DNA from: Escherichia coli
GTDB taxonomy: Bacteria; Pseudomonadota; Gammaproteobacteria; Enterobacterales; Enterobacteriaceae
Direction: 5' to 3' (one strand)
NCBI RefSeq assembly: GCF_030384885.1
Contig: NZ_CP128613.1
DNA: 64,000 nt
Shown: piece after piece, positions 140 to 59,383 of the stretch
Numbering within the stretch: position 1 is the first letter of the stretch
Layout: each line of letters opens with the position of its first letter
Made by a program: the position numbers and the translations under genes
The notes under the pieces: model-generated
What the model was told of the DNA's origin: nothing
The model's input: the letters and a program-made list of their open reading frames with translations, nothing else
Database searches by the model: none

Positions 140-981
140 TTGAGAACCGTCCGTGGCTGACAATATTCAGCCATACCATGCTGATCCTCGGGATCGCGGT
201 GATCCTCTTCCCGCTGTACGTGGCGTTTGTCGCGGCGACGCTGGATAAACAGGCCGTCTACGCCGCGCCGATGACGCTCATCCCCGGCACGCATCTGTTG
301 GAAAACATCCACAACATCTGGGTGAACGGGGTAGGCACAAATAGCGCGCCGTTCTGGCGGATGTTGCTTAACAGCTTCGTGATGGCGTTCAGCATTACGC
401 TCGGCAAGATTACCGTCTCGATGCTCTCGGCATTTGCCATTGTCTGGTTTCGTTTTCCGCTGCGTAACCTCTTCTTTTGGATGATTTTTATCACCCTGAT
501 GCTGCCAGTTGAAGTGCGTATCTTCCCGACAGTAGAAGTCATCGCCAACCTGAACATGCTCGACAGCTACGCTGGTTTAACGCTGCCGCTGATGGCCTCG
601 GCAACTGCTACCTTCCTGTTCCGCCAGTTCTTTATGACGCTGCCGGATGAGCTGGTGGAAGCCGCGCGGATCGACGGCGCGTCACCAATGCGTTTCTTTT
701 GCGACATCGTTTTCCCGCTGTCGAAAACCAATCTGGCGGCGCTGTTTGTGATCACTTTTATTTACGGCTGGAACCAGTATTTGTGGCCGTTGTTGATTAT
801 TACCGACGTTGATCTCGGCACCACTGTGGCAGGGATCAAAGGGATGATCGCTACAGGCGAAGGCACCACGGAATGGAATTCGGTGATGGCGGCGATGTTG
901 TTAACGCTTATCCCTCCGGTGGTGATTGTTTTAGTGATGCAGCGTGCCTTCGTGCGCGGCCTGGTCGATAGTGAGAAATAA
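136..981 (+). CDS. ugpE: sn-glycerol-3-phosphate ABC transporter permease UgpE
   Basis: 281-aa ORF, multi-TM permease translation; operon context ugpE-ugpC-ugpQ. Confidence 0.93.
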
Positions 982-982
982 G

Positions 983-2053
983 ATGGCAGGACTGAAATTA
1001 CAGGCAGTAACCAAAAGCTGGGATGGCAAAACCCAGGTCATTAAACCGCTGACCCTTGATGTGGCGGATGGCGAATTTATCGTGATGGTCGGGCCGTCTG
1101 GCTGCGGGAAATCCACGTTGCTGCGCATGGTTGCCGGGCTGGAGCGGGTCACCGAAGGCGATATCTGGATTAACGACCAACGCGTGACCGAAATGGAGCC
1201 GAAAGATCGCGGGATTGCGATGGTGTTCCAGAACTACGCTCTTTATCCGCATATGAGTGTCGAAGAAAACATGGCGTGGGGGCTGAAAATTCGCGGCATG
1301 GGCAAGCAACAAATTGCCGAACGTGTTAAAGAAGCGGCGCGCATTCTGGAGCTGGATGGCCTGCTCAAGCGCCGTCCGCGTGAGCTTTCTGGCGGTCAGC
1401 GTCAGCGTGTGGCGATGGGCCGTGCGATTGTGCGCGATCCGGCGGTGTTCCTGTTTGATGAGCCGCTCTCTAACCTCGATGCCAAGCTGCGTGTTCAGAT
1501 GCGCCTTGAGCTGCAACAACTGCACCGTCGCCTGAAAACGACTTCACTCTACGTTACTCACGATCAGGTTGAGGCGATGACGCTCGCTCAGCGGGTAATG
1601 GTGATGAACGGCGGCGTTGCCGAACAGATTGGCACGCCAGTTGAAGTCTACGAAAAGCCCGCCACTCTGTTTGTGGCGAGTTTTATCGGCAGTCCGGCGA
1701 TGAACCTGCTGACAGGCCGCGTGAATAACGAAGGCACGCATTTCGAACTGGATGGCGGTATCGCGCTACCGCTAAACGGTGGCTACCGTCAGTATGCCGG
1801 GCGTAAAATGACTCTTGGCATTCGCCCGGAACATATTGCGTTAAGCTCGCAGGCAGAAGGCGGCATACCGCTGGTGATGGACACGCTGGAGATCCTCGGC
1901 GCAGATAACCTGGCGCACGGACGCTGGGGCGAACAGAAGCTGGTGGTGCGACTGGCGCATCAGGAGCGCCCGACGACAGGCAGCACGCTGTGGCTGCATC
2001 TGCCGGAAAATCAGCTGCATCTTTTTGATGGTGAAACAGGACAACGAGTATGA
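983..2053 (+). CDS. ugpC: sn-glycerol-3-phosphate ABC transporter ATP-binding protein UgpC
   Basis: Walker [13 protein letters not shown] signature LSGGQRQR; start moved to ATG at 983 (MAGLKLQAV...), since the track ORF is N-extended. Confidence 0.93.
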
Positions 2054-2793
2054 GTAACTGGCCTTATCCCCGCATCGTCGCCCACCGTGGCGGCGGTAAA
2101 CTGGCCCCGGAAAACACCCTGGCGGCAATCGACGTTGGGGCAAAATACGGTCATAAGATGATCGAATTTGACGCGAAGTTATCGAAAGATGGCGAGATCT
2201 TCCTGCTGCATGACGACAATCTCGAGCGTACCAGCAATGGTTGGGGCGTCGCGGGCGAACTGAACTGGCAGGATTTACTGCGCGTGGATGCGGGCAGTTG
2301 GTACAGCAAAGCGTTTAAAGGTGAGCCGCTGCCGTTGCTTTCGCAGGTGGCGGAACGCTGCCGTGAACATGGGATGATGGCAAATATTGAAATCAAACCC
2401 ACCACTGGCACTGGTCCATTAACGGGCAAAATGGTATCGCTGGCGGCGCGCGAACTGTGGGCTGGTATGACGCCGCCGCTGCTGTCATCGTTTGAGATTG
2501 ATGCTTTAGACGCCGCACACCAGGCTGCACCGGAACTGCCGCGCGGTTTGTTGCTGGATGAGTGGCGCGACGACTGGCGCGAACTGACCACGCGGCTGGA
2601 CTGCGTCTCTATTCATCTCAATCATAAGTTGCTCGATAAAGCGCGAGTGATGCAGTTGAAAGACGCTGGATTACGGATTCTGGTTTATACCGTCAACAAA
2701 CCCCAGCGCGCGGCAGAGTTGCTGCGCTGGGGCGTGGATTGCATCTGTACCGATGCGATTGATGTGATTGGCCCGAACTTTACGGCCCAATAG
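2050..2793 (+). CDS. ugpQ: glycerophosphodiester phosphodiesterase UgpQ
   Basis: 247-aa ORF, 4-bp overlap with ugpC stop; GDPD-family-like translation. Confidence 0.92.
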
Positions 2794-3220
2794 TTTTCAA
2801 CGGAATATCAGGCTGCGGCGTGCTGGGCTGATTCAGCATGTCGCCGTTTCTTCTCTCTGGCAACATATGCTGCTGATTCAACGAACTATCCGGATTACGG
2901 TTGCTGTTTAACATTCCGCCGTTGGTGTTGGGCAGCATTTGCTGCCGGGCGGGATTTAGCTCCCCCGGCTGTGACTGCAATACCCGCTGAGAGTTGCTAT
3001 TAAGCTGATTTTCTAAATGCTGCTGTTGCAACTGCGTTTGCGTTTTCAGTTGCTGATTCAGCATCCCTTTTTGCTGGATTTGCTGCGTTTGCATTTGAGT
3101 TTGCATTCGCTGCTGGCTGGGGATCTGATACCCCGGCTGGTTAGGGTTGTTCAGAGTATTAATGGGCTGTGCAAAGCCGACAAAAGGCAGGAGTGCCGTC
3201 AAAAGCAGAAGTCGTTTCAT
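2780..3220 (-). CDS. yhhA: Gln-rich secreted protein YhhA
   Basis: 146-aa ORF with N-terminal signal peptide ([17 protein letters not shown]) and Q/N-rich low-complexity body. Confidence 0.85.
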
Positions 3221-3339
3221 CGCGTATCCTCCTCTGAAGATATTCTTTAAGTTTACTCCTTTCCTGCAATCATCAGGATTAATTCAGAGTTATATACCAG
3301 GCTTAGCTGGGGTTGCCCCTTAATCTCTGGAGTATAACG

Positions 3340-5085
3340 ATGATAAAACCGACGTTTTTACGCCGGGTGGCTATTGCTGCTCTGCTCACAGGAAGTTGTT
3401 TTAGTGCTGTCGCCGCGCCACCTGCGCCGCCGCCAGTCTCGTATGGCGTGGAGGAGGATGTCTTCCATCCGGTACGCGCGAAGCAGGGGATGGTAGCATC
3501 TGTGGACGCCACTGCCACTCAGGTGGGGGTAGATATCCTTAAGCAGGGCGGGAATGCCGTTGATGCTGCCGTGGCAGTGGGCTACGCGCTGGCGGTAACG
3601 CATCCGCAGGCAGGGAATCTGGGCGGCGGCGGTTTTATGCTGATCCGCACTAAAGATGGCAATACCACCGCCATCGATTTCCGCGAAATGGCACCCGCCA
3701 AAGCGACCCGCGATATGTTCCTTGATGATCAGGGCAACCCGGACAGCAAAAAATCTCTCACTTCGCATCTTGCTTCTGGCACACCCGGTACGGTAGCGGG
3801 CTTCTCGTTGGCGCTGGAGAAATACGGCACCATGCCGCTGAACAAAGTTGTGCAGCCTGCGTTTAAACTGGCACGCGATGGTTTTATCGTTAACGATGCG
3901 CTGGCAGACGATCTCAAAACCTACGGCAGTGAAGTGCTACCAAATCACGAAAACAGCAAAGCTATCTTCTGGAAAGAGGGCGAACCGCTGAAAAAGGGCG
4001 ACAAGCTGGTACAGACGAATCTGGCAAAGAGCCTGGAGATGATTGCCGAAAACGGCCCGGATGAATTCTACAAAGGCACGATAGCGGAACAAATCGCCCT
4101 GGAGATGCAGAAAAACGGTGGCTTGATCACTAAAGAAGATTTAGCGGCGTATAAAGCGGTCGAACGTACACCAATAAGTGGCGATTATCGCGGGTATCAG
4201 GTTTACTCCATGCCACCGCCATCTTCCGGCGGGATTCATATCGTGCAGATCCTCAATATTCTGGAAAACTTCGATATGCAGAAATACGGCTTTGGCAGCG
4301 CCGATGCGATGCAAATCATGGCAGAAGCGGAGAAATACGCCTACGCCGACCGCTCGGAATATCTTGGCGACCCGGATTTTGTCAAAGTACCGTGGCAGGC
4401 GCTGACCAATAAAGCCTATGCCAAATCTATTGCCGATCAAATCGATATCAATAAAGCGAAGCCATCCAGCGAAATTCGTCCTGGCAAGCTTGCGCCTTAT
4501 GAGAGTAATCAAACTACCCATTACTCAGTGGTGGATAAAGACGGTAACGCCGTGGCGGTGACCTATACGCTGAACACCACCTTCGGTACGGGCATTGTCG
4601 CGGGCGAGAGCGGTATTTTGCTTAATAATCAGATGGATGATTTCTCCGCCAAACCAGGCGTACCGAACGTTTACGGGCTGGTGGGCGGCGATGCTAACGC
4701 TGTCGGGCCGAATAAACGTCCGCTGTCATCGATGTCACCAACCATTGTGGTGAAAGACGGAAAAACCTGGCTGGTGACCGGTAGCCCTGGCGGAAGCCGA
4801 ATTATCACCACTGTGCTGCAAATGGTGGTGAACAGCATCGATTATGGCATGAATGTCGCCGAAGCGACCAATGCGCCGCGTTTCCACCATCAGTGGTTGC
4901 CGGACGAGCTGCGTGTCGAGAAAGGATTTAGTCCGGATACGCTCAAGCTGCTGGAAGCAAAAGGTCAGAAAGTGGCGCTGAAAGAGGCGATGGGCAGTAC
5001 ACAAAGCATTATGGTTGGGCCTGACGGTGAGTTGTACGGTGCATCCGACCCGCGCTCGGTGGATGATTTAACGGCGGGGTACTAA
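3340..5085 (+). CDS. ggt: gamma-glutamyltranspeptidase
   Basis: Start set at MIKPTFLRR...; signal peptide; conserved GGT motifs (TTHYSVVDKDGNAVAVTYTLN, autoprocessing Thr region). Confidence 0.95.
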   Translation: MIKPTFLRRVAIAALLTGSCFSAVAAPPAPPPVSYGVEEDVFHPVRAKQGMVASVDATATQVGVDILKQGGNAVDAAVAVGYALAVTHPQAGNLGGGGFMLIRTKDGNTTAIDFREMAPAKATRDMFLDDQGNPDSKKSLTSHLASGTPGTVAGFSLALEKYGTMPLNKVVQPAFKLARDGFIVNDALADDLKTYGSEVLPNHENSKAIFWKEGEPLKKGDKLVQTNLAKSLEMIAENGPDEFYKGTIAEQIALEMQKNGGLITKEDLAAYKAVERTPISGDYRGYQVYSMPPPSSGGIHIVQILNILENFDMQKYGFGSADAMQIMAEAEKYAYADRSEYLGDPDFVKVPWQALTNKAYAKSIADQIDINKAKPSSEIRPGKLAPYESNQTTHYSVVDKDGNAVAVTYTLNTTFGTGIVAGESGILLNNQMDDFSAKPGVPNVYGLVGGDANAVGPNKRPLSSMSPTIVVKDGKTWLVTGSPGGSRIITTVLQMVVNSIDYGMNVAEATNAPRFHHQWLPDELRVEKGFSPDTLKLLEAKGQKVALKEAMGSTQSIMVGPDGELYGASDPRSVDDLTAGY

Positions 5086-5091
5086 GGTTAG

Positions 5092-5117
5092 CGGCCCTCT
5101 TCGTGGGAAGAGGGCCG
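5092..5117. terminator. bidirectional hairpin terminator between ggt and yrhB
   Basis: Perfect inverted repeat cggccctcttc-gtgg-gaagagggccg immediately after the ggt stop, between convergent genes. Confidence 0.6.
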
Positions 5118-5122
5118 TATTG

Positions 5123-5407
5123 TCAGGGCAAGCCGAAGGTAGCTTTTTTTATTTCATAATCCTGTAGATATTCTTCCAGCGGCTTTGCCGTTCCCAGCGA
5201 ATGAATTTCACCACTGTCTTTATCAATAATAAAAGGTGCGTTACCAGCTAAGCGCGCGGCCTCATCACCAGTTTCGAGAAATTCTCGTGCTTCGAAACAG
5301 AAATACCAGCCCTGGCTAAAGCGTCCATGTAGAGTAATGACGACGGCGAGATCTGCATCATCAAGGTAATGGTTCGCTTTCGCGAATGCTTCCTGATAAT
5401 TAATCAT
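5123..5407 (-). CDS. yrhB: small heat-stable protein YrhB
   Basis: 94-aa ORF (MINYQEAFAKANHYLDD...) matching my recollection of YrhB. Confidence 0.8.
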   Translation of the reverse strand: MINYQEAFAKANHYLDDADLAVVITLHGRFSQGWYFCFEAREFLETGDEAARLAGNAPFIIDKDSGEIHSLGTAKPLEEYLQDYEIKKATFGLP

Positions 5408-5518
5408 AATGATTCTGGATTTTCCGATGGGGCAGTTAGGTCATGCTTTTTTTCAAGCGCAACATATCCAACAAAGCCTTAATAAAATATTGTAATTTAC
5501 AATAAGTGTTAATGATGT

Positions 5519-6007
5519 TCATTTCACACGCGCCATATAATACGCATCGACATATTCACCGTTTCGTAATGCGTACTTCTTGCCAGTCCCTTCAATCTCA
5601 AAGCCGAATTTTTTATAGACCTTAATTGCTGGCGCGTTATCAACGAACACCGTTAGTTCAATACGATCTACCCGCAACCAGTTGTCGCACATTGCAATCA
5701 TCTCTCGCATCAGGGCGCTGGCGACGCCGCGGTTCTTCCAGCGGGAGTCGACACAGATACCAAAGTCGGCAACATGACTGCGGCGTGGGCGTTGTTGCAC
5801 GTCAATAGTGAGATGACCCACAACGTCTCCATCAATACAGGCGACGAGTTGCTTGATGCCGGGACGATCGGCGAGTCGCTCCTGCCACATATGATCGGAA
5901 GGATGAGGCACCTGTAGTGTGTTGCAATACACCTCCGGCTGGGCGTGAATCTGCCTGATGGCCTCGTAATCCCGTGTTTCTGCATGGCGTATTACTATCT
6001 CACTCAT
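5519..6007 (-). CDS. yhhY: GNAT-family N-acetyltransferase YhhY
   Basis: Start set at MSEIVIRHAETRDYEAIRQIH...; acetyl-CoA binding motif region RGVASALM. Confidence 0.85.
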   Translation of the reverse strand: MSEIVIRHAETRDYEAIRQIHAQPEVYCNTLQVPHPSDHMWQERLADRPGIKQLVACIDGDVVGHLTIDVQQRPRRSHVADFGICVDSRWKNRGVASALMREMIAMCDNWLRVDRIELTVFVDNAPAIKVYKKFGFEIEGTGKKYALRNGEYVDAYYMARVK

Positions 6008-6094
6008 TCCTTTGTCCTCTTTGGGGTAAATGTCCCTTTCAACATCATTGACTTTCAAATGCGAGTCAAATGCATTTTTTTGCAAAAAGTGTTG

Positions 6095-6128
6095 GACAAG
6101 TGCGAATGAGAATGATTATTATTGTCTC
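6095..6128 (+). promoter_or_regulatory. ryhB promoter with Fur box
   Basis: aatgagaatgattattatt resembles the Fur consensus gataatgataatcattatc and lies immediately upstream of the RyhB 5' end. Confidence 0.6.
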
Positions 6129-6218
6129 GCGATCAGGAAGACCCTCGCGGAGAACCTGAAAGCACGACATTGCTCACATTGCTTCCAGTATTACTTAGCC
6201 AGCCGGGTGCTGGCTTTT
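6129..6218 (+). ncRNA. ryhB: RyhB small regulatory RNA (Fur-repressed, iron-sparing)
   Basis: Sequence gcgatcaggaagaccctcgcggagaacctgaaagcacgacattgctcacattgcttccagtattacttagccagccgggtgctggcttttttttt matches RyhB as I recall it, including the terminal hairpin and U-run; located between yhhY and yhhX. Confidence 0.9.
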
Positions 6219-6341
6219 TTTTTGACCTTTCGTTCTCAATTTATCCACGGGAAGTGCTTGTGTTTGTTATGCGCACTCCTGTAGGAACCGCGTCCGCTTT
6301 GCGCTAAGGTGGTAGATAACCACCTTAAAAAGGACGAAATC

Positions 6342-7379
6342 ATGGTCATCAACTGCGCCTTTATTGGCTTCGGCAAAAGCACCACCCGTTACCATCTGCC
6401 GTATGTACTTAACCGCAAGGATAGCTGGCATGTCGCGCATATTTTTCGCCGCCATGCGAAGCCGGAAGAACAGGCTCCCATTTATTCCCATATTCATTTC
6501 ACCAGCGATCTCGACGAAGTGCTAAACGATCCCGACGTTAAGTTGATTGTCGTCTGCACTCATGCGGACAGCCACTTCGAGTACGCGAAACGCGCGCTGG
6601 AAGCCGGGAAAAATGTGCTGGTCGAAAAACCGTTCACCCCGACACTTGCGCAGGCGAAAGAGCTGTTTGCGCTGGCGAAAAGCAAAGGGCTGACCGTTAC
6701 GCCGTATCAGAATCGTCGCTTTGACTCCTGTTTTCTGATGGCGAAAAAAGCGATTGAAAGCGGCAAGCTGGGAGAGATTGTCGAAGTGGAAAGCCATTTT
6801 GACTATTACCGCCCGGTGGCAGAAACCAAACCTGGACTGCCGCAGGATGGCGCGTTCTATGGCCTTGGTGTGCATACCCTCGACCAGATAATCTCGCTGT
6901 TCGGTCGCCCGGATCACGTCGCTTATGACATCCGCAGCCTGCGTAATAAAGCCAATCCTGACGACACCTTCGAAGCGCAGCTGTTTTATGGCGATCTAAA
7001 AGCCATCGTCAAAACCAGCCATCTGGTGAAAATCGATTATCCGAAATTTATCGTTCACGGGAAGAAAGGTTCGTTTATTAAATATGGTATCGACCAGCAG
7101 GAAACCAGCCTGAAGGCTAATATTATGCCGGGCGAGCCGGGATTCGCAGCGGATGATTCGGTCGGTGTGCTGGAGTATGTCAATGACGAGGGCGTTACGG
7201 TCAGAGAAGAGATGAAGCCGGAGATGGGCGATTACGGACGCGTTTATGATGCGTTGTACCAAACCATCACCAACGGTGCACCAAATTACGTCAAGGAATC
7301 TGAAGTTCTTACCAATCTGGAAATCCTTGAACGCGGTTTTGAGCAAGCCTCTCCCTCCACAGTGACTCTTGCGAAGTAA
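6342..7379 (+). CDS. yhhX: Gfo/Idh/MocA-family NAD(P)-dependent oxidoreductase YhhX
   Basis: Start set at MVINCAFIGFGKSTTRYHLPY (Rossmann GxGxxG-like N-terminus); 345 aa. Confidence 0.88.
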   Translation: MVINCAFIGFGKSTTRYHLPYVLNRKDSWHVAHIFRRHAKPEEQAPIYSHIHFTSDLDEVLNDPDVKLIVVCTHADSHFEYAKRALEAGKNVLVEKPFTPTLAQAKELFALAKSKGLTVTPYQNRRFDSCFLMAKKAIESGKLGEIVEVESHFDYYRPVAETKPGLPQDGAFYGLGVHTLDQIISLFGRPDHVAYDIRSLRNKANPDDTFEAQLFYGDLKAIVKTSHLVKIDYPKFIVHGKKGSFIKYGIDQQETSLKANIMPGEPGFAADDSVGVLEYVNDEGVTVREEMKPEMGDYGRVYDALYQTITNGAPNYVKESEVLTNLEILERGFEQASPSTVTLAK

Positions 7380-7501
7380 GTTTGATGACCTCTCGAATAG
7401 TTCAATTTTTTTGAACAGAGGGGTCAATTTTCACCCTCTATCATCCCAGGCGGATCGGGTCCACACTAAGCCCATCGAAATCATTCAGGGGGCGAATACA
7501 A

Positions 7502-8197
7502 ATGATCTACTTACGCAAAGCAAATGAACGTGGTCATGCAAATCATGGCTGGCTGGACTCCTGGCATACTTTCTCTTTTGCCAACTATTACGACCCGAAC
7601 TTTATGGGCTTTTCCGCGCTGCGCGTGATTAACGACGACGTGATTGAAGCAGGGCAGGGCTTCGGCACTCACCCGCATAAAGATATGGAAATTTTGACCT
7701 ACGTGCTGGAAGGTACTGTTGAGCACCAGGACAGCATGGGCAATAAAGAGCAGGTTCCGGCGGGCGAGTTCCAGATTATGAGTGCGGGTACGGGTATTCG
7801 TCACTCAGAGTACAACCCAAGCAGTACCGAGCGTCTGCATCTGTATCAGATCTGGATCATGCCAGAAGAAAACGGCATTACGCCACGTTATGAACAACGT
7901 CGCTTCGATGCCGTACAGGGTAAACAGCTGGTGCTTTCGCCTAATGCGCGAGATGGTTCGTTGAAAGTGCATCAGGATATGGAGCTGTACCGTTGGGCGC
8001 TGGTGAAAGATGAGCAGTCGGTGCATCAGATTGCCGCTGAACGCCGCGTCTGGATCCAGGTGGTGAAAGGCAATGTCACCATTAACGGCGTGAAAGCCTC
8101 GACCAGCGATGGTCTGGCAATCTGGGATGAGCAGGCAATCTCCATCCATGCGGATAGCGACAGCGAAGTGTTACTGTTCGATCTGCCGCCGGTTTAA
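7502..8197 (+). CDS. yhhW: pirin-like quercetin 2,3-dioxygenase YhhW
   Basis: 231-aa ORF; cupin metal-binding His motif (GFGTHPHKDMEILTYVLEG). Confidence 0.9.
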   Translation: MIYLRKANERGHANHGWLDSWHTFSFANYYDPNFMGFSALRVINDDVIEAGQGFGTHPHKDMEILTYVLEGTVEHQDSMGNKEQVPAGEFQIMSAGTGIRHSEYNPSSTERLHLYQIWIMPEENGITPRYEQRRFDAVQGKQLVLSPNARDGSLKVHQDMELYRWALVKDEQSVHQIAAERRVWIQVVKGNVTINGVKASTSDGLAIWDEQAISIHADSDSEVLLFDLPPV

Positions 8198-8246
8198 AAC
8201 TTAACGGCATTTTTGAAGCCTGCCTTTTTGCGGGCTTCATCGCTCG

Positions 8247-8283
8247 CCCCGGTCGCGTGCTGATGTACGCGACCGGGGTTTCG
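8247..8283 (+). terminator. rho-independent terminator downstream of yhhW
   Basis: ccccggtcgcg ... cgcgaccgggg perfect stem followed by tttcg. Confidence 0.6.
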
Positions 8284-8420
8284 TCGCGTCTTTAGTACAA
8301 TGCGATGCAATTGATTTAGTGTATATCTAATTATTGTAAACAAGCACTGTTTTCTCCGGGAAGGTTCTGATGCGTCCGTGTTAAACTAAGAGAATCTATC
8401 TCTTTTGTACCTTCAGGACG

Positions 8421-9416
8421 ATGAAAAAGAAAAGACCCGTACTTCAGGATGTGGCTGACCGTGTTGGCGTGACCAAAATGACGGTCAGCCGTTTTTTACG
8501 CAACCCGGAGCAGGTTTCCGTCGCTCTACGTGGCAAGATTGCCGCCGCTCTTGATGAACTGGGTTATATTCCCAATCGCGCGCCCGATATCCTCTCTAAT
8601 GCCACCAGCCGGGCGATTGGCGTCCTGTTACCTTCACTCACCAACCAGGTTTTCGCTGAAGTATTACGCGGTATCGAAAGCGTCACGGACGCACACGGTT
8701 ATCAGACGATGCTGGCGCACTACGGTTACAAACCGGAAATGGAGCAAGAACGCCTCGAATCAATGCTTTCCTGGAATATCGACGGACTTATTCTCACCGA
8801 ACGTACCCACACGCCCCGCACCTTAAAGATGATTGAAGTAGCGGGTATTCCGGTGGTGGAGCTGATGGACAGTAAGTCGCCGTGCCTCGATATCGCCGTC
8901 GGTTTTGATAACTTTGAAGCGGCACGCCAGATGACCACCGCCATTATTGCTCGCGGGCATCGTCACATTGCCTATCTCGGCGCACGCCTCGACGAACGTA
9001 CTATCATCAAACAGAAGGGATATGAGCAGGCGATGCTGGATGCAGGCCTGGTGCCGTATAGCGTGATGGTCGAGCAATCTTCTTCTTACTCTTCCGGTAT
9101 TGAACTGATTCGCCAGGCGCGGCGGGAATATCCGCAGTTGGATGGCGTATTTTGTACTAATGATGACCTGGCGGTCGGCGCGGCGTTTGAATGTCAGCGT
9201 CTGGGGCTGAAAGTTCCTGACGATATGGCGATTGCCGGTTTCCACGGTCATGACATTGGTCAGGTGATGGAGCCACGGCTGGCGAGCGTGCTGACGCCGC
9301 GTGAGCGGATGGGCAGCATTGGCGCTGAGCGCCTGCTGGCGCGTATTCGTGGCGAATCTGTGACACCGAAAATGTTAGATTTAGGTTTCACCTTGTCACC
9401 AGGCGGATCTATTTAA
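8421..9416 (+). CDS. gntR: LacI-family gluconate repressor GntR
   Basis: 331 aa; N-terminal HTH (LQDVADRVGVTKMTVSRFL) plus periplasmic-binding-like core. Confidence 0.93.
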   Translation: MKKKRPVLQDVADRVGVTKMTVSRFLRNPEQVSVALRGKIAAALDELGYIPNRAPDILSNATSRAIGVLLPSLTNQVFAEVLRGIESVTDAHGYQTMLAHYGYKPEMEQERLESMLSWNIDGLILTERTHTPRTLKMIEVAGIPVVELMDSKSPCLDIAVGFDNFEAARQMTTAIIARGHRHIAYLGARLDERTIIKQKGYEQAMLDAGLVPYSVMVEQSSSYSSGIELIRQARREYPQLDGVFCTNDDLAVGAAFECQRLGLKVPDDMAIAGFHGHDIGQVMEPRLASVLTPRERMGSIGAERLLARIRGESVTPKMLDLGFTLSPGGSI

Positions 9417-9495
9417 GCTCACAAATTTGAAGTAGCTCACACTTATACACTTAAGGCACGGATGGATATTGCTTCTGTTTTTGTCCGGCTGGACA

Positions 9496-9524
9496 ATGTT
9501 ACCGATAACAGTTACCCGTAACAT
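9496..9524 (+). promoter_or_regulatory. GntR operator pair upstream of gntK
   Basis: atgttaccgataacagttacccgtaacat: two overlapping palindromic half-site pairs of the ATGTTACCCGTAACAT type. Confidence 0.6.
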
Positions 9525-9555
9525 TTTCTGATTCTTGTATTGTGGGGGCACCACT

Positions 9556-10083
9556 TTGAGCACGACTAACCATGATCACCACATTTACGTCTTGATGGGC
9601 GTATCGGGCAGCGGCAAATCTGCAGTCGCCAGTGAAGTGGCGCATCAACTTCATGCCGCGTTTCTTGATGGCGATTTCCTCCATCCGCGCTGCAATATCG
9701 AAAAAATGGCGTCTGGCGAACCGCTGAATGACGACGATCGCAAACCGTGGTTACAGGCGCTTAACGACGCCGCGTTTGCCATGCAGCGCACCAATAAAGT
9801 GTCGCTGATCGTCTGTTCTGCACTGAAAAAGCACTATCGCGACCTGCTGCGTGAAGGTAATCCGAATCTCTCTTTCATCTACCTGAAAGGCGATTTTGAT
9901 GTAATTGAAAGCCGTCTGAAAGCGCGCAAAGGCCATTTCTTTAAAACCCAAATGCTGGTGACGCAGTTTGAAACGCTGCAGGAGCCGGGTGCGGACGAAA
10001 CCGATGTACTGGTGGTGGATATCGATCAACCGCTGGAAGGTGTTGTGGCAAGCACCATTGAGGTTATTAAAAAAGGCAAATAA
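9556..10083 (+). CDS. gntK: thermoresistant gluconokinase GntK
   Basis: P-loop GVSGSGKS; start assigned to TTG at 9556 to give the 175-aa protein (MSTTNHDHHIYVLMG...), with an in-frame ATG 21 nt upstream as the alternative. Confidence 0.88.
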   Translation: MSTTNHDHHIYVLMGVSGSGKSAVASEVAHQLHAAFLDGDFLHPRCNIEKMASGEPLNDDDRKPWLQALNDAAFAMQRTNKVSLIVCSALKKHYRDLLREGNPNLSFIYLKGDFDVIESRLKARKGHFFKTQMLVTQFETLQEPGADETDVLVVDIDQPLEGVVASTIEVIKKGK

Positions 10084-10086
10084 GTA

Positions 10087-11427
10087 GTGACTACATTAAC
10101 GCTTGTTTTAACAGCAGTAGGGTCTGTTTTACTGCTGCTGTTTTTAGTCATGAAGGCGCGTATGCACGCTTTCCTGGCTTTGATGGTGGTGTCTATGGGG
10201 GCTGGCCTTTTTTCCGGTATGCCGCTCGATAAAATCGCAGCGACGATGGAAAAAGGGATGGGAGGCACCCTCGGCTTCCTGGCGGTAGTTGTCGCCCTGG
10301 GAGCCATGTTTGGCAAGATCTTACATGAAACCGGCGCAGTCGATCAGATTGCCGTCAAAATGCTCAAATCCTTCGGTCACAGTCGTGCGCATTATGCCAT
10401 TGGCCTTGCGGGCCTGGTTTGTGCGCTACCACTGTTCTTTGAAGTGGCGATTGTTCTGCTGATTAGCGTTGCTTTCTCAATGGCGCGCCATACTGGCACG
10501 AACCTGGTGAAGCTGGTTATCCCGTTATTCGCGGGCGTGGCGGCAGCAGCGGCGTTCTTACTACCGGGGCCAGCGCCAATGCTGCTGGCATCGCAGATGA
10601 ATGCTGACTTTGGCTGGATGATCCTGATTGGCCTGTGTGCGGCAATCCCGGGAATGATTATTGCCGGGCCGCTGTGGGGTAATTTCATCAGCCGCTATGT
10701 GGAGCTGCATATTCCTGACGATATCAGCGAACCGCATCTCGGCGAAGGCAAAATGCCGTCCTTCGGATTCAGCCTGTCGCTGATCCTGCTGCCGCTGGTG
10801 CTGGTGGGGCTGAAAACCATTGCCGCACGTTTTGTGCCGGAAGGCTCTACCGCTTACGAATGGTTCGAGTTTATCGGTCATCCGTTTACCGCAATTCTGG
10901 TCGCTTGCCTGGTAGCAATTTACGGCCTGGCGATGCGTCAGGGTATGCCGAAAGACAAAGTGATGGAGATTTGCGGTCACGCGCTGCAACCGGCGGGGAT
11001 TATTCTGCTGGTGATTGGTGCAGGCGGCGTGTTCAAACAGGTGCTGGTTGACTCTGGCGTAGGTCCGGCGCTGGGCGAAGCGTTAACCGGCATGGGCCTG
11101 CCGATTGCCATCACCTGCTTCGTGCTGGCAGCTGCAGTGCGCATCATTCAGGGTTCTGCCACCGTTGCCTGTTTAACGGCGGTGGGACTGGTGATGCCGG
11201 TTATTGAACAGCTGAACTACTCCGGTGCGCAAATGGCGGCGCTGTCAATTTGTATCGCCGGTGGTTCGATTGTTGTCAGCCACGTTAACGACGCCGGTTT
11301 CTGGTTGTTCGGTAAATTTACCGGCGCGACCGAAGCCGAAACGCTGAAAACCTGGACCATGATGGAAACCATCCTCGGCACCGTTGGTGCCATCGTCGGG
11401 ATGATTGCGTTCCAGCTGTTGAGTTAA
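10087..11427 (+). CDS. gntU: low-affinity gluconate transporter GntU (GntP family)
   Basis: 446-aa polytopic membrane protein; GTG start directly after the gntK stop. Confidence 0.92.
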   Translation: MTTLTLVLTAVGSVLLLLFLVMKARMHAFLALMVVSMGAGLFSGMPLDKIAATMEKGMGGTLGFLAVVVALGAMFGKILHETGAVDQIAVKMLKSFGHSRAHYAIGLAGLVCALPLFFEVAIVLLISVAFSMARHTGTNLVKLVIPLFAGVAAAAAFLLPGPAPMLLASQMNADFGWMILIGLCAAIPGMIIAGPLWGNFISRYVELHIPDDISEPHLGEGKMPSFGFSLSLILLPLVLVGLKTIAARFVPEGSTAYEWFEFIGHPFTAILVACLVAIYGLAMRQGMPKDKVMEICGHALQPAGIILLVIGAGGVFKQVLVDSGVGPALGEALTGMGLPIAITCFVLAAAVRIIQGSATVACLTAVGLVMPVIEQLNYSGAQMAALSICIAGGSIVVSHVNDAGFWLFGKFTGATEAETLKTWTMMETILGTVGAIVGMIAFQLLS

Positions 11428-11436
11428 GTTTGTTCG

Positions 11437-11469
11437 CCCGGTAGTTGTGACGCTACCGGGCTCTTTTCG
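11437..11469. terminator. hairpin terminator between gntU and yhgN
   Basis: cccggtag-ttgtgacg-ctaccggg followed by ctcttttcg. Confidence 0.6.
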
Positions 11470-11483
11470 AAAAACTCTCCTCG

Positions 11484-12077
11484 TTACCCCTTCATCCACA
11501 TTCGAATGCCGTCGAGGAACATCTGAGTTGCCATCATCACCAGAATCAATCCCATCAGGCGTTCAAGTGCATTCACCCCTTTCTCGCCCAGCAGACGTAA
11601 AAATAGCGAAGACTGTAGCAGGATGACAAAGGTGCCACCCCAGGCCAGCAGCAGAGCAATTACCAGATGTCCCATCTGATTCGGGTACTGATGAGACAAC
11701 AACATCAGCGTGGCGAGAATAGTCGGCCCGGCGACTAACGGAATTGCCAACGGCACGATAAACGGCTCTTCACCTGCCGGAAGCCCGCTGCTATTTCCTG
11801 AAGCACTGGGGAAAATCATCTTAATGGCGATCAGAAACAGAATGATGCCGCCAGAAATGGAGACGGTTTCTGCCCGCAGGCTAAGAAATGCCAGAATTTT
11901 CTCGCCCGCAAACAGGAACACCAGCATCACCAGGAGAGCAATAAGCAACTCTCGCACCATGATTGCCCGCCGTCTTTTCGGTTCAGTATGTTTCAGTACG
12001 GACATGAAAATAGGTAGGTTTCCGAGCGGATCCATAATCAGGATCAATAAAACTGCTGCAGAAATGATTTCATTCAT
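11484..12077 (-). CDS. yhgN: MarC-family inner membrane protein YhgN
   Basis: 197-aa hydrophobic ORF (MNEIISAAVLLILIMDPLGNLPIF...). Confidence 0.88.
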   Translation of the reverse strand: MNEIISAAVLLILIMDPLGNLPIFMSVLKHTEPKRRRAIMVRELLIALLVMLVFLFAGEKILAFLSLRAETVSISGGIILFLIAIKMIFPSASGNSSGLPAGEEPFIVPLAIPLVAGPTILATLMLLSHQYPNQMGHLVIALLLAWGGTFVILLQSSLFLRLLGEKGVNALERLMGLILVMMATQMFLDGIRMWMKG

Positions 12078-12269
12078 AACTCAAATTCCCTGATAATTGC
12101 CGCGGACTTTCTGCGTGCTAACAAAGCAGGATAAGTCGCATTACTGATGGCTTCGCTATCATTGATTAATTTCACTTGCGACTTTGGCTGCTTTTTGTAT
12201 GGTGAAAGATGTGCCACGAGGAGACCGGCACATTTATACAGCACACATCTTTGCAGGAAAAAAACGCTT

Positions 12270-23131: not shown

Positions 23132-24649
23132 ATGGAAAGAATAATGCAAAACAGAAAATGGATTTTGACCTCGCTGATAATGACTTTTTTCGGCATCCCC
23201 ATACTGGCGCAATTTTTGGCAGCGGTTATTGCCATGCTGGGGGCCGGGCTTGCCGCTATTCTTGAGGCTTGCAATTTACTCTTTACGCCAACAATTTATC
23301 TTCTACTCAACGTCTTTATGCTGACGCTGGGGGCGATAATCCTATTTTTCTCTGGTCGCGTGTGGGCCGGTGATAGCGCACCAGAAAACAGAGAAATAGC
23401 CGTCTGGCGGCAATGCTTTTTTCTTTTACCTGCACTGTTAACTCTGGTTGGCTGGATAATCACGCTACATCTGGCAGATTATCAATTTCGCCAAATGGGA
23501 GCAGGTTGGTTGGCAGAGCTTATGCTCCCCTGGCTGGGAGTTTTGTTAGTCTCATTAGTCGGAGGTGAGTTCTGGTGGATAGTCATTATACCCGTTGGTG
23601 CGCATATTAGTTTTTCGCTGGGGTATGGCTGGCCGACCAGATATCCTTTAACCGGCACGTACGGGTTACGTTGCCGTAATTCCCTCCTGTTTATCCTTCT
23701 CATGCTTGGTTTTATCGCTGGTTATCAGGCTTATTTATATAAACAGATTAATCCCGGCGTCGGTGTGCGTGAAAATATTGATACCTGGGCCTGGCGACCC
23801 GATAAACTCAATAATCAACTGACGCCACTGCGTGGTAAACCGCAAATTCAGTTTACACAAAACTGGCCGCGACTCGATGGTGCTACGGCGGCGTACCCAA
23901 TTTATGCTTCTGCCTTTTATGCGTTGAGCGTTATACCGGAAGATTTCCACACATGGGAATATCTGGAGAACTCTCGTACCCCCGATGCATATAACAGGAT
24001 TGTTAAAGGTGATGCCGATATTATTTTTGTGGCGCAACCTTCCGGTGGGCAGAAAAAACGTGCAGAGGAATCGGGCGTCACTTTGAACTACACTCCTTTC
24101 GCCCGTGAAGCATTCGTTTTCATCGTCAATGCGGATAACCCGGTTAATTCCCTGACTGACCAACAGGTGCGTGACATCTTCAGTGGCGCAATTACCAACT
24201 GGCGTACTGTTGGCGGTAACGATCAGGAGATCCAGACCTGGCAACGCCCGGAAGACTCTGGCAGCCAGACAGTGATGCAATCGCAGGTCATGAAAAATGT
24301 CCGCATGATCTCGCCGCAGGAAACCGAAGTGGCAAGCATGATGGAGGGAATGATTAAAGTTGTTGCCGAATACCGTAATACAAACAACTCAATAGGCTAC
24401 ACCTTCCGCTATTACGCAACACAAATGAATGCCGATAAAAATATAAAACTGCTAGCTATTAACGGTATTGCACCGACTGCGGAAAATATTCGTAACGGCA
24501 AATATCCATATATCGTCGATGCCTTTATGGTAACGCGGGAAAATACTACGTCAGAAACACAAAAACTGGTCGAATGGTTTTTAACGCCGCAGGGGCAGAG
24601 TCTGGTGGAAGATGTGGGTTATGTACCGTTGCATACAACAATGAAATAA
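23132..24649 (+). CDS. islet 1 gene 1: polytopic membrane domain fused to a PstS-like (phosphate-binding-protein fold) periplasmic domain
   Basis: 505-aa ORF; residues about 1-200 form several hydrophobic helices; the C-terminal part shows PstS-like motifs (AAYPIYASAF; QRPEDSGSQTVM, compare PstS RADGSGTS; SIGYTFRYYA). Function not assigned. Confidence 0.7.
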   Translation: MERIMQNRKWILTSLIMTFFGIPILAQFLAAVIAMLGAGLAAILEACNLLFTPTIYLLLNVFMLTLGAIILFFSGRVWAGDSAPENREIAVWRQCFFLLPALLTLVGWIITLHLADYQFRQMGAGWLAELMLPWLGVLLVSLVGGEFWWIVIIPVGAHISFSLGYGWPTRYPLTGTYGLRCRNSLLFILLMLGFIAGYQAYLYKQINPGVGVRENIDTWAWRPDKLNNQLTPLRGKPQIQFTQNWPRLDGATAAYPIYASAFYALSVIPEDFHTWEYLENSRTPDAYNRIVKGDADIIFVAQPSGGQKKRAEESGVTLNYTPFAREAFVFIVNADNPVNSLTDQQVRDIFSGAITNWRTVGGNDQEIQTWQRPEDSGSQTVMQSQVMKNVRMISPQETEVASMMEGMIKVVAEYRNTNNSIGYTFRYYATQMNADKNIKLLAINGIAPTAENIRNGKYPYIVDAFMVTRENTTSETQKLVEWFLTPQGQSLVEDVGYVPLHTTMK

Positions 24650-24674
24650 CTTTTGAGAGAACGGAATCAGCGCG

Positions 24675-25667
24675 ATGAATAAATTCATAGGCGTTTTACT
24701 GCTAGGTGCGGTTTTACTGGCGGGATGTGTCGACCGGGAAGGCTACTATAACAGCGTCAGGGAAGAAGACAGCCATGGACTGACGACTCTGCGGGGGCAA
24801 CCTGAATTACGTTACAACGATGATTGGTCAAGATGGCCGAGAGTATACGGCGCTACAGCCTTATACCCGCTGTATGCCTCCGCGTATTATGAATTAGTAC
24901 CCGAGCCAAAAGATAAGGATCGAACCTCGCTGGCCTGGCAGGCGTATGGTTTGCAACAAACCCGAACAGCTGAAGCCTACGATAGTCTGATCAAGGGTAC
25001 CGCGACGGTTATTTTTGTTGCACAACCGTCGGAAGGACAGAAAAAACGTGCAGAAGAAGCAGGCGTTAAACTGAAATATACCGCGTTTGCCCGCGAAGCC
25101 TTTGTCTTTATCGTTGATATCAAAAACCCGGTTAATTCACTTAGCGAACAGCAGGTCAAAGACATTTTTAGCGGTAAAGTGAGTCGCTGGAATAAAGTGG
25201 GCGGCGGTGACGAAAGTATAAAAGTCTGGCAGCGGCCAGAAGATTCTGGAAGCCAAACGGTTATGAAGGGACTGGTTATGCAAGATACTCCAATGCTGCC
25301 AGCCAAAAAATCCACTGTTATCGATCTTATGGGCGGTTTAATTACCGAAGTCGCCGACTACCAAAACACAACATCTTCCATTGGATACACCTTCCACTAT
25401 TACGTCACACGTATGAATGACAATATGCTCAAAATGCGCAAACAGATCAAACTGCTAGCTATAACTGGCATTGCGCCTACAGAGGAAAATATCCGTAACG
25501 GCACTTATCCGTACATAATTGATGCTTATATGGTGACGCACGAAACCCCTGCGCTGGAAACGCAGAAATTCGTCGACTGGTTTTTAAGCCCGCAGGGACA
25601 GCAATTGGTAGAGGATGTGGGGTATGTGCCGATTCATGACGCATCATACGAATCATCAGTGCAATAA
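24675..25667 (+). CDS. islet 1 gene 2: lipoprotein with PstS-like substrate-binding domain
   Basis: 330 aa; lipobox LLAGC; same motifs as the gene-1 C-terminal domain (ALYPLYASAYY; QRPEDSGSQTVM; SIGYTFHYY). Confidence 0.72.
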   Translation: MNKFIGVLLLGAVLLAGCVDREGYYNSVREEDSHGLTTLRGQPELRYNDDWSRWPRVYGATALYPLYASAYYELVPEPKDKDRTSLAWQAYGLQQTRTAEAYDSLIKGTATVIFVAQPSEGQKKRAEEAGVKLKYTAFAREAFVFIVDIKNPVNSLSEQQVKDIFSGKVSRWNKVGGGDESIKVWQRPEDSGSQTVMKGLVMQDTPMLPAKKSTVIDLMGGLITEVADYQNTTSSIGYTFHYYVTRMNDNMLKMRKQIKLLAITGIAPTEENIRNGTYPYIIDAYMVTHETPALETQKFVDWFLSPQGQQLVEDVGYVPIHDASYESSVQ

Positions 25668-26269
25668 TGATGAATAAAATCAGACTTTATATTCCTCCGT
25701 TAATTCTTGGTTTTGTTATTGTGCCGTTGTTGGTGTGGCCGACGGTGGTTGCGCTGGCTGCTTCTGTTATCACGCTGAGTTTTCTGGGAGAGATACTGTT
25801 CTCTATCCCGCTCATGATCAGGCGTATTTCACTTCTGCAATTACAACTATGGTTATCGGCTGAATATGCGCTTTTCTTCTGTGCAATGGTGGGCGTTGGT
25901 TGGCAATTTGCGCGCAGAACGCCACCTGAATTGAAAAGCAGACTGCATTGTTGGCTGGTATTTGCACCAGTTTATTTCTGGTTGCTCCTGTGGAATATCA
26001 TTTTCTATGTCGCGCCAGCGAATATTGCGTTGCTGGAGAATATGCGCAGTTTCTTTCTGACAGTTGTCTGGCTCCCACTGAATTTTTCGCCATTTTGGTC
26101 TCAACCGTGGATTGACTTTGTCGGTCCAATAAGCGCACAGCTTGGTTTTGCGTTGGGATATTATTGCCAGTGGCGTAGCAAAAATAGAAGCCAGATACGG
26201 AAGTGGAGTGAGTGGGGAACGTGCCTGAGTTTTGTTACGTTGGGTATGATGGCGTGGGCTTTGCGGTAA
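25667..26269 (+). CDS. islet 1 gene 3: small polytopic membrane protein, paralog of the gene-1 N-terminal domain
   Basis: 200 aa, 4-6 hydrophobic segments; PISAQLGFALGYYCQW resembles PVGAHISFSLGYGW in gene 1; start ATG overlaps the gene-2 stop (TAATG). Confidence 0.65.
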   Translation: MMNKIRLYIPPLILGFVIVPLLVWPTVVALAASVITLSFLGEILFSIPLMIRRISLLQLQLWLSAEYALFFCAMVGVGWQFARRTPPELKSRLHCWLVFAPVYFWLLLWNIIFYVAPANIALLENMRSFFLTVVWLPLNFSPFWSQPWIDFVGPISAQLGFALGYYCQWRSKNRSQIRKWSEWGTCLSFVTLGMMAWALR

Positions 26270-26376
26270 TTCCCTGACTCAAAAAGTAGGTCAGATTGTT
26301 GACAAAGTGCGCTTTGTTCATGCCGGATGCGACATGAACGTCTTATTGGCCTACAAGACCATGCAAATTGTAGTGG

Positions 26377-27626
<1,250 letters not shown>

Positions 27627-56695: not shown

Positions 56696-56731
56696 AAAAC
56701 GGGAGGAGAAGGAGCCTCCTGTTTTATTTTG
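56696..56731 (+). terminator. envZ rho-independent terminator
   Basis: aaaacgggagg-agaaggag-cctcctgtttt followed by atttt. Confidence 0.7.
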
Positions 56732-56856
56732 TGCACTCAGTATCTACTGAATGAATACGGTCTCAGACATCGGCACCATACGAAGTAAAGTGTACTGTAA
56801 GCTGATTGCAGGCTAGCGTATCCTGATTAGTAAAAGCACACTAAAGGAATAGCTTG

Positions 56857-58140
56857 ATGCAACTTACCAACGAAGAACAAGTACAGATTGCTCGTATAAA
56901 AGAAAAAATCCCACGCATTGCCGCACTGGATCCTGAATGTAAGTTATTCGGTTCTGAAGGTTGGAAATATCAATGGCCGAAGCCTGCCAGCGAGGCGGAA
57001 ATAGCTTCCTGGGAGAAAAAACATAGCGTCACTTTGCCACGGGAATATCGAATTTTTCTTCGCTATATCGCTAATGGCGGTCCGGCACATGCCTACGGTC
57101 TTGAATCTTTAGGCGGTACAGATATTTATGGCGATATAACAAAAGAAAGCCCTGTACCGCTTTATATGACGCAGCAGGATGTTGATGTGTTGAATGCTGG
57201 CCGTACAGAAGATGATGAAGAATATAGTTTTTTTGACGGCGCATTGACCATTCTCACCCTGGGATGTACTTATGATATTTGCCTGGTGGTGACGGGGCAG
57301 TATCGCGGAAGGTTAATGCTGACTGATGGTGATGAAGATTATCCGTTTGATTTTATATATGATAAAAATTTCCTCAACTGGTATGAACGCTGGCTGGACG
57401 ATTTTATTGCTGGCATGAGTATGAAGGGTTTCGATAGAAGTTTGCCAGGAACGCAAATTCAACTGCGTGAGTGGTTTTTAACTGAGAAAATCCCGGATTT
57501 ACGTAGATCCATTTTATTCTCGCTATGCCGTTTTCCACAGATAGAACCCGAAACTTTTGCCCTTTGGGAACATGTTTGCCGTACAGAGAATGATAAAGAA
57601 TTGTGTGAAGAGGCATTCATAAGATTACGCCAAAAAAAAGTTTCTTGTGCTGCAGATATTTTTCGACTCTATTTTGCAATGTCAGATGAATTACGTGATA
57701 TTGCTATTAAAGATCTCCGTTTTGCCTGTAGAGATAGTGTGGTGAATATTGAGGATTATATTCATTCACTGTTAATAATAATGCCTGAACTTGACGATGA
57801 CACTCTATCCTCAGCTGTCTTTGCTATACGAGAAACAGAGTATAATAAATATGATACTTTTCTGCCGCTTCTCGAACGTATCACTGATGACCGTCAGCAA
57901 ACATTATTGTGGGCGATGAGTAAGGCGCCTGATTTCAATGAAAGCCGAGGATTCGTTGAGTTGGTATTACCGCTTTTTGCATCATCAAAGATGGAGAATG
58001 TAAGGAAGGCTATTTTGTTGCTCATTGAAGTTAAAGATAATCGTATTCCACCATTGGTTGATGAAGCTGCAACTCGTTTCCCTGAACTGACCATTTTACG
58101 AGAAAACTACTATCTCAGGACGTGGGGACATAAGCCATAA
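56857..58140 (+). CDS. islet 2 ORF A: SUKH (SMI1/KNR4)-like N-terminal domain fused to a C-terminal alpha-helical repeat (HEAT/ARM-like) domain
   Basis: ATG at 56857 with AAAGGA Shine-Dalgarno 8 nt upstream; N-terminal motif SWEKKHSVTLPREYRIFLRYIANGG and YDKNFLNWYERWLDDFI typical of SMI1/KNR4; C-terminal half has repeated helix pairs. Confidence 0.7.
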   Translation: MQLTNEEQVQIARIKEKIPRIAALDPECKLFGSEGWKYQWPKPASEAEIASWEKKHSVTLPREYRIFLRYIANGGPAHAYGLESLGGTDIYGDITKESPVPLYMTQQDVDVLNAGRTEDDEEYSFFDGALTILTLGCTYDICLVVTGQYRGRLMLTDGDEDYPFDFIYDKNFLNWYERWLDDFIAGMSMKGFDRSLPGTQIQLREWFLTEKIPDLRRSILFSLCRFPQIEPETFALWEHVCRTENDKELCEEAFIRLRQKKVSCAADIFRLYFAMSDELRDIAIKDLRFACRDSVVNIEDYIHSLLIIMPELDDDTLSSAVFAIRETEYNKYDTFLPLLERITDDRQQTLLWAMSKAPDFNESRGFVELVLPLFASSKMENVRKAILLLIEVKDNRIPPLVDEAATRFPELTILRENYYLRTWGHKP

Positions 58141-58177
58141 ATTAATGGTTCAGAAATGATCTAACGCGGAGAAAAAT

Positions 58178-59331: not shown

Positions 59332-59334
59332 CAT

Positions 59335-59362
59335 ATCCCCCGTATCTGGTGAAACGGGGGAT
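59335..59362 (-). terminator. pck rho-independent terminator (also ends islet 2)
   Basis: atcccccgt-atctggtgaa-acgggggat perfect stem; T-rich on the minus strand after the hairpin. Confidence 0.7.
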
Positions 59363-59383
59363 TTCGTCGCTTAACTTATCGGA

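Follow-up and report, generated by a model that had tools for sequence, protein, structure and literature searches.

In the window, by which we mean the whole 64,000-nucleotide stretch of DNA that was analyzed, the small gene yrhB lies at a junction whose two walls are the core genes ggt and yhhY. The gene ggt is convergent with both yrhB and yhhY. The features of the junction are as follows.

3340-5085, plus strand: ggt, encoding gamma-glutamyltransferase, a core gene and one wall of the junction (RefSeq annotation of an identical record, and the table of open reading frames)
5091-5118: a G+C-rich hairpin with a 12-bp stem, where ggt and yrhB converge, between their stop codons (folding energy -26.8 kcal/mol, z = -3.7)
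5123-5407, minus strand: yrhB, 94 amino acids, Pfam family Imm35, reading frame intact, the sole islet gene kept in the window
5408-5518, minus strand: a spacer of 111 bp between yrhB and yhhY
5519-6007, minus strand: yhhY, encoding a GNAT N-acetyltransferase (annotation, and Pfam Acetyltransf_1 with E = 1.4e-18), a core gene and the other wall of the junction

The hairpin at 5091-5118 also occurs in the loci of O157, Citrobacter freundii, and a contig labeled Escherichia fergusonii, and a related hairpin is found in genomes with an empty site. It is probably a bidirectional terminator, and it is the edge of the islet on the ggt side. Beyond yhhY, the window continues with the RyhB small RNA, yhhX, yhhW, and gntRKU. 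RyhB lies at 6158-6222 on the plus strand and has the same neighbors as in K-12, yhhY and yhhX (Rfam RF00057, 83.1 bits, E = 9.5e-16), with its own promoter-like site at 6093-6122 and a terminator at 6197-6215. The window is a 100% match to E. coli 2013C-4282 (NZ_CP027579.1), where ggt, yrhB, yhhY, and yhhX are annotated. It runs in the direction opposite to the K-12 map, and its identity to K-12 is 94.7 to 96.8% over the full 64 kb, too low for E. coli sensu stricto. The strain has been listed as a member of Escherichia cryptic clade I that carries stx1 (PMC10100065).

The annotated order in K-12 MG1655 is yhhY-yhhZ-yrhA::IS1E-yrhD-yrhB-ggt, with the insA6 and insB6 genes of IS1E splitting yrhA, and it is 3.1 kb longer than the arrangement in the window. 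With blastn, window positions 163 to 5413 aligned with positions 15001 to 9754 of the K-12 locus, and window positions 5523 to 12148 aligned with positions 6623 to 1. One breakpoint falls at the yhhY stop codon and the other 6 bp before the start of yrhB. Between them, K-12 has 3126 bp (positions 6628 to 9753 of its locus) and the window has 109 bp, so that yrhB and yhhY are not neighbors in K-12. The initial annotation had given the distance between yrhB and yhhY as 111 bp, which is exact, and had placed yhhZ, yrhA, and an IS1 copy between the two genes in K-12, which agrees with the MG1655 annotation save for the omission of yrhD. Its statement that this K-12 segment is absent from the window is borne out by blastn, but a simple loss does not follow from it, since the 109 bp have no detectable K-12 counterpart; this indicates a replacement rather than a clean excision. 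The yhhY stop codon itself differs among haplotypes: the window type has TGA and the empty type TAG, and K-12 and O157 share TAA. The variable segment therefore starts exactly at, or within, the yhhY stop.

The spacer showed no similarity to the K-12 islet or its flanks, either by short-word blastn or by local alignment with shuffled controls (z = 1.2), and a remnant of K-12 intergenic DNA was rejected as its source on both grounds. The same local alignment gave z = 11 against C. freundii and z = 9 against the relic in O157. By blastn the spacer is collinear with positions 7921 to 8264 of the C. freundii locus, the match running on into yrhB. Two features were placed within it.

5446-5478, minus strand: the best-conserved core of the relic, with 30 of 33 nucleotides identical to C. 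freundii and one 3-nucleotide gap
5488-5504: a perfect A+T-rich palindrome, TATTGTAAtTTACAATA, followed by UUUUAUU on the minus strand, as read from the sequence

By translation and tblastn, the relic core reads GFVGYVALEKK, compared with GFVEYVGLERKK and a stop codon at the C terminus of an 85-amino-acid protein of C. freundii, and the frame stays open as far as a TGA that overlaps the ATG of yrhB. A profile hidden Markov model of the 85-amino-acid family matched the spacer with E = 6e-3 in the window, in a small search space, and with E = 4e-4 in strain 042. These comparisons lead us to read the spacer as a relic of the 3' end of the 85-amino-acid gene that precedes yrhB in the C. freundii islet, together with its junction to yrhB. 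The match in the window is short, 33 nucleotides at the core, and because the family has two similar internal segments, the register of the relic within the gene is not fully certain. The family is intact in Citrobacter islets; named homologs of the intact gene come from Citrobacter and Budvicia, and none carries an E. coli label. The 3' end of an Hcp-Gln_amidase toxin gene was also considered as a source of the spacer and was rejected, as homology to the E. fergusonii-labeled locus ends 9 bp upstream of the yrhB ATG.

The same model matched the interval between yrhD and yrhB with E = 2e-14 in K-12 and E = 4e-12 in strain 536, in both cases over the N-terminal two-thirds of the protein. The window type and the K-12/536 type keep different pieces of the same lost gene, which argues that neither was derived from the other. 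In K-12, this "intergenic" DNA (positions 9563 to 9721 of the K-12 locus; K-12 coordinates 3584562 to 3584720) is an 85-amino-acid-family pseudogene with one internal stop that is unannotated in MG1655 and also present in 536.

Scans of the spacer for promoters, terminators, and RNA folding gave nothing above chance, the one promoter-like site (5512-5484, minus strand) lying within chance expectation. The palindrome is at best a weak terminator after yhhY: its fold was not significant (z = -1.7), and the terminator scan was blank there. A promoter scan found no significant promoter for yrhB. Transcription of yrhB by read-through from yhhY is plausible, and the gene is probably expressed in the window by that route or from a weak promoter in the spacer.

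The state of the junction in other species was surveyed with YhhY as the query, taking one genome per species; 40 loci were returned, about 38 of which also contained ggt. In nearly all of these approximately 38 outgroup loci, ggt and yhhY are adjacent and tail to tail, about 45 to 100 bp apart. This adjacency was seen in Escherichia albertii, Escherichia whittamii, three further Escherichia lineages, Citrobacter sedlakii, Enterobacter, Klebsiella, Lelliottia, Pluralibacter, and others. Besides Escherichia and C. freundii, the only sampled species with a large segment between the two genes was Franconibacter pulveris, where about 2.9 kb separates yhhY from ggt (L028, 8487-11351). A 4-kb contig from a metagenome-assembled genome of "Flavihumibacter sp." (CABHOW010000200.1) carries K-12-like yhhX, yhhY, yhhZ, yrhA, and yrhD at 99 to 100% protein identity and stops short of ggt; it is almost certainly E. 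coli contamination of that assembly. In E. coli genomes with an empty site, the spacer can be aligned base by base with its counterpart in E. albertii and other outgroups. Since the outgroups are empty and share a homologous spacer with empty-site E. coli, the DNA found at this site in other E. coli is an insertion that is polymorphic in the species, and the ancestral state of the site was empty.

Within the species, 5426 complete E. coli genomes were surveyed. The K-12 type, with yhhZ present, accounts for 3806 of them (70%), the ancestral empty junction for 985 (18%), an O157:H7-type segment with a DUF4225 gene for 343 (6%), and the window type, consisting of yrhB, a spacer of about 110 bp, and yhhY, for 232 (4%); other states make up, by subtraction, about 60 genomes (about 1%). 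The gene yrhB is present in 4068 of the 5426 (75%) and absent from 25%. A single further window-type genome, 2017-02-2CC, closely resembles the window (99.4% identity). The other 230, which include 042 and APEC O78, show 87 to 89% identity across the junction, and the 109-bp spacing is found in all. Such divergence between clade I and 230 E. coli genomes is not as expected of a recent event, and the window haplotype is old. Recurrent short deletions were considered and rejected: a chimeric query that joined the end of yhhY to the start of yrhB, in their K-12 alleles, recovered a single class with the 109-bp spacer (230 genomes).

These data bear directly on whether the window arose by a recent, simple deletion of a K-12-type yhhZ-yrhA-yrhD module, with the 111 bp as leftover K-12 intergenic DNA. 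Such an origin would fit the collinearity of yrhB and both flanks with K-12 and the majority standing of yhhZ-type genomes. It conflicts with a spacer that resembles not K-12 but, significantly, the DNA upstream of yrhB in C. freundii and O157, with the survival in K-12 and 536 of the other, N-terminal end of the 85-amino-acid gene, and with the age of the junction in its two lineages. Moreover, yhhY and yrhB were found within 650 bp of each other in no genome with K-12 alleles. We consider a K-12 deletion largely refuted and very unlikely.

Alternatively, the short state could be primitive, yrhB having arrived alone or with a short leader and the yhhZ-yrhA and DUF4225 modules having been inserted later. 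Clade I and E. coli sensu stricto both have the short state, and between them it has diverged about as much as the core genes on either side; this is consistent with such an order of events, as is the window-type spacer that O157 has beside a remnant of yrhB. The spacer, however, holds a 3' coding end in a frame that ends on the yrhB start codon, from which it follows that an upstream gene once existed. The immunity genes of this family are attached to toxins in relatives, including at the ggt locus, and C. freundii shares the full order of yhhZ, yrhA, the 85-amino-acid gene, and yrhB. On balance we think a primitive short state unlikely, and we favor an old deletion within a longer islet.

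Several different islets occupy the site. YhhZ of K-12 contains the Hcp domain of type VI secretion systems (T6SS) and a weak HNH match by Pfam, and it has been described as an "evolved Hcp" and as a His-Me finger nuclease (PMC2907695, PMC5714182). Because yrhA overlaps the yhhZ stop codon, yrhA is likely the immunity gene of YhhZ. This Hcp-HNH and yrhA module is found in K-12-type E. coli and in C. freundii, whose islet consists of yhhY, a 294-amino-acid gene, homologs of YhhZ (71% identity) and YrhA (67%), the 85-amino-acid gene, YrhB (73%), an 86-amino-acid gene, and ggt. In the E. fergusonii-labeled locus, the neighbor of ggt is a yrhB with 83% identity that overlaps the 3' end of a 383-amino-acid gene encoding an Hcp domain fused to Gln_amidase; the species label is the depositor's, and the contig is 96.5% identical to the window versus 93.9% to K-12. 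The protein is 86% identical to YhhZ over residues 1 to 235 and unrelated afterwards, the signature of a polymorphic toxin whose C-terminal toxin domain has been swapped. Across these loci, the HNH form is paired with a downstream YrhA and the deamidase form with a downstream YrhB. In the window, the table of open reading frames contains no fusion of Hcp (PF05638) to a toxin between ggt and yhhY, whereas K-12, C. freundii, and the E. fergusonii-labeled locus each have one.

A further toxin-domain gene, encoding DUF4225, lies at the same site in O157:H7. Experimental work has established DUF4225 as a T6SS toxin domain (Jana et al. 2022, PMC9765294). Of yrhB, O157 retains the initial 38 bp, along with about 50 bp of window-type spacer. 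In O157:H7 MB41-1, a frameshifted RecQ-family helicase gene and a DprA gene (L004, 15043-18369) lie between gntU and yhgN and are absent from both the window and K-12. At least three different toxin modules thus use the site between ggt and yhhY, and the gene in the window would be the immunity gene of one of them.

The initial annotation had called this a variable junction in a neighborhood that appears to trade toxin/immunity cassettes. The population survey, with four main states, confirms the variability, and three different T6SS-linked toxin modules at the same site support the trading of cassettes. The missing K-12 module is toxin/immunity-like, as was proposed there, but the retained yrhB was overlooked: it too belongs to an immunity family, Imm35, so the window still holds part of a toxin/immunity system. 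The site is empty in related species and has alternative contents within E. coli, which is the pattern of an integration hotspot; none of the papers searched links yhhY with a hotspot. The table of open reading frames and the K-12 annotation show no integrase, tRNA, recombinase, or mobile-element gene at the window site, and no flanking direct repeats or att-like repeats were found at the junction beyond the target duplication of IS1E in K-12. More likely, the contents were exchanged by homologous recombination in the core genes on either side.

Other parts of the window also differ from K-12. A 2.66-kb segment between envZ and pck (56725-59383) is absent from K-12 and contains a 428-amino-acid open reading frame (56854-58140) whose SUKH-1/SMI1-KNR4 domain represents a further superfamily of immunity proteins from polymorphic toxin systems, as well as two open reading frames that matched nothing in Pfam. 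The segment is probably the other variable junction to which the initial annotation alluded. Two more segments absent from K-12, at 23365-26210 and 26369-27625, lie between glgP and glpD near the yzgL remnant of K-12. The first contains PBP_like_2 open reading frames (23132-24649 and 24675-25667) and a 200-amino-acid open reading frame, and the second is an IS3-family element with transposase open reading frames at 27243-27590 and 26377-27123, both on the minus strand.

YrhB of the window matches the Pfam family Imm35 (PF15567) with 80.7 bits against a cutoff of 27.5 (E = 8.5e-23), over positions 2 to 85 of the 85-position profile. Zhang et al. (2012, PMC3482391) linked Imm35 specifically to Tox-PL1, a toxin with a papain fold. 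Homologs of YrhB indeed lie directly downstream of Gln_amidase toxins, overlapping the toxin gene by 1 to 4 bases; in four Pectobacterium genomes, a homolog with 69% identity overlaps the end of a CdiA whose C-terminal domain is Gln_amidase, which is Tox-PL1. The window yrhB does not directly follow a toxin of the Tox-PL1/Gln_amidase or Ntox40 type; its upstream neighbor is yhhY, 111 bp away. With a clear Imm35 match and no adjoining toxin, it is an orphan member of the family. The cognate Gln_amidase toxin end gave no blastn match in the 5426 complete E. coli genomes, that of the window strain included, at the nucleotide level, where a very diverged toxin would escape. No E. coli name occurs among the best 120 protein relatives of the toxin domain, which come from Scandinavium, Erwinia, Pseudomonas, Pantoea, Salmonella, Acinetobacter, and others and are carried by Hcp, CdiA, and Rhs proteins.

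The yrhB frame is intact in all six sequences compared (the window, 2017-02-2CC, 042, K-12, 536, and the E. fergusonii-labeled locus), and pairwise dN/dS values among the six range from 0.16 to 0.44, in a gene of only 285 bp with few differences; the gene may be under purifying selection. It is also a mosaic. Relative to a toxin-adjacent copy (L053, 1650-1934), the window gene (5123-5407) has 99.5% nucleotide identity over codons 33 to 94 and 64.6% over codons 1 to 32. This suggests a recombination breakpoint inside yrhB and a variable N-terminal third that possibly determines specificity. With codons 1 to 32 only about 65% identical, the specificity of the orphan YrhB may differ from that of the toxin-adjacent copy, or may have shifted. 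A sequence search found no solved structure of YrhB or of a YrhB complex.

In K-12, yrhB is annotated as a "putative heat shock chaperone," and it has been counted among the chaperones (PMC6598250). Were YrhB a housekeeping stress chaperone, its toxin neighbors would be incidental and the junction irrelevant to bacterial competition; the occurrence of the gene in three-quarters of E. coli could be cited in favor. A housekeeping role sits poorly, though, with its absence from the remaining quarter and, at this site, from every outgroup species sampled, with the strong Imm35 match, and with homologs that overlap the stop codons of deamidase toxins in two different delivery systems. We find a chaperone role hardly credible. 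Instead, we take yrhB to be an orphan immunity gene, judging from family membership and gene context, and predict that YrhB binds and blocks a deamidase.

In light of these observations, we consider it probable that a T6SS Hcp-toxin islet once stood at this ancestrally empty site and that only its immunity part is left in the window, after an old deletion that was not derived from the K-12 arrangement. The starting point would have been the two convergent core genes, ggt and yhhY, with about 45 to 100 bp and one hairpin between them. A small type VI secretion islet would then have been gained between them in Escherichia and some Citrobacter, its fuller form resembling that of C. freundii, in which several small immunity genes follow an Hcp with a C-terminal toxin. 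This toxin end would be swappable. In one version it would be a papain-fold glutamine deamidase (Tox-PL1, Pfam Gln_amidase) with the cognate yrhB directly after it; in the common E. coli version it would be an HNH nuclease with yrhA for immunity, and yrhB would be a leftover further downstream. In the lineage of the window, an old internal deletion may have begun at the yhhY stop codon and ended within the small gene that preceded yrhB, leaving the 111-bp relic and an intact yrhB with no toxin. YrhB should still neutralize glutamine-deamidase toxins from neighbors, whether borne by Hcp through T6SS or by CdiA in contact-dependent inhibition, and selection for such protection may explain why the gene was retained.

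A broader proposal is more tentative, and we would put it at somewhat below even chances. YrhB, in about 75% of E. coli, may be a species-wide orphan shield against glutamine-deamidase toxins that are encoded by neighboring enterobacteria, on Hcp or CdiA proteins, and not by complete E. coli genomes, and the window haplotype may have been kept by selection since before the split of clade I from part of E. coli sensu stricto. If true, it would represent a long-lived strategy of defense without offense at a fixed chromosomal site. If the protection is real, the presence or absence of yrhB could influence which Escherichia coexist with deamidase-armed gut competitors. The analysis also proposes an orphan immunity role for a K-12 gene whose function is uncertain and names a candidate toxin, a re-annotation that is testable, and it provides a small, well-bounded example of the build-up and erosion of a toxin/immunity islet, with population frequencies for each state.

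Each part of this reading has a counterpart among known systems. Orphan immunity genes and immunity-only islands occur downstream of rhs and cdi loci, in T6SS auxiliary clusters of Vibrio cholerae, and in acquired interbacterial defense clusters of Bacteroidales. Like them, yrhB is intact, has no toxin, and lies downstream of a displaced toxin end. It differs in that it is just one gene, its chromosomal site is fixed, and neither recombinase nor mobile-element genes lie close by; the protection it affords is putative. The Hcp-ET proteins, as summarized in PMC6730261 and PMC6099711 from Ma et al. (2017), are polymorphic T6SS effectors with ETi immunity genes, and papain-like peptidases are given as one of their five clans (PMC6099711). 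The junction islet resembles them in having an Hcp with a swappable C-terminal toxin and then immunity genes, as in YhhZ and in the E. fergusonii-labeled Hcp-Gln_amidase with yrhB directly after it. A shared N terminus with alternative toxins, each with its own immunity gene, is found across the loci outside the window; the window itself differs in having the immunity gene alone, with no Hcp-ET gene. As far as those summaries describe it, the ET5/ETi5 pair of Ma et al. may correspond to the YrhB family.

The Imm35/Tox-PL1 pair is a further counterpart, in that YrhB scores well above the Pfam cutoff and its homologs follow Gln_amidase (Tox-PL1) as was predicted for that pair (PMC3482391). The difference is that yrhB stands alone in the window, and the toxin domain has no nucleotide match in the 5426 complete E. 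coli genomes. The DUF4225 gene of O157:H7, between ggt and yhhY with a small, apparently membrane-embedded open reading frame beside it, is reminiscent of the DUF4225 effector in Hcp auxiliary modules (PMC9765294). However, O157 has no adjacent hcp, the small open reading frame does not lie downstream of the DUF4225 gene but converges on it, and DUF4225 does not occur in the window. Bacteria that keep a shield after losing the weapon are a tidy but ordinary case, and the findings at ggt-yhhY leave current concepts of polymorphic toxin systems unchanged. Since all of the components are of known kinds, namely, Hcp-ET toxins, Imm35/Tox-PL1 pairs, and orphan immunity genes, the junction is a new documented instance rather than a new mechanism.
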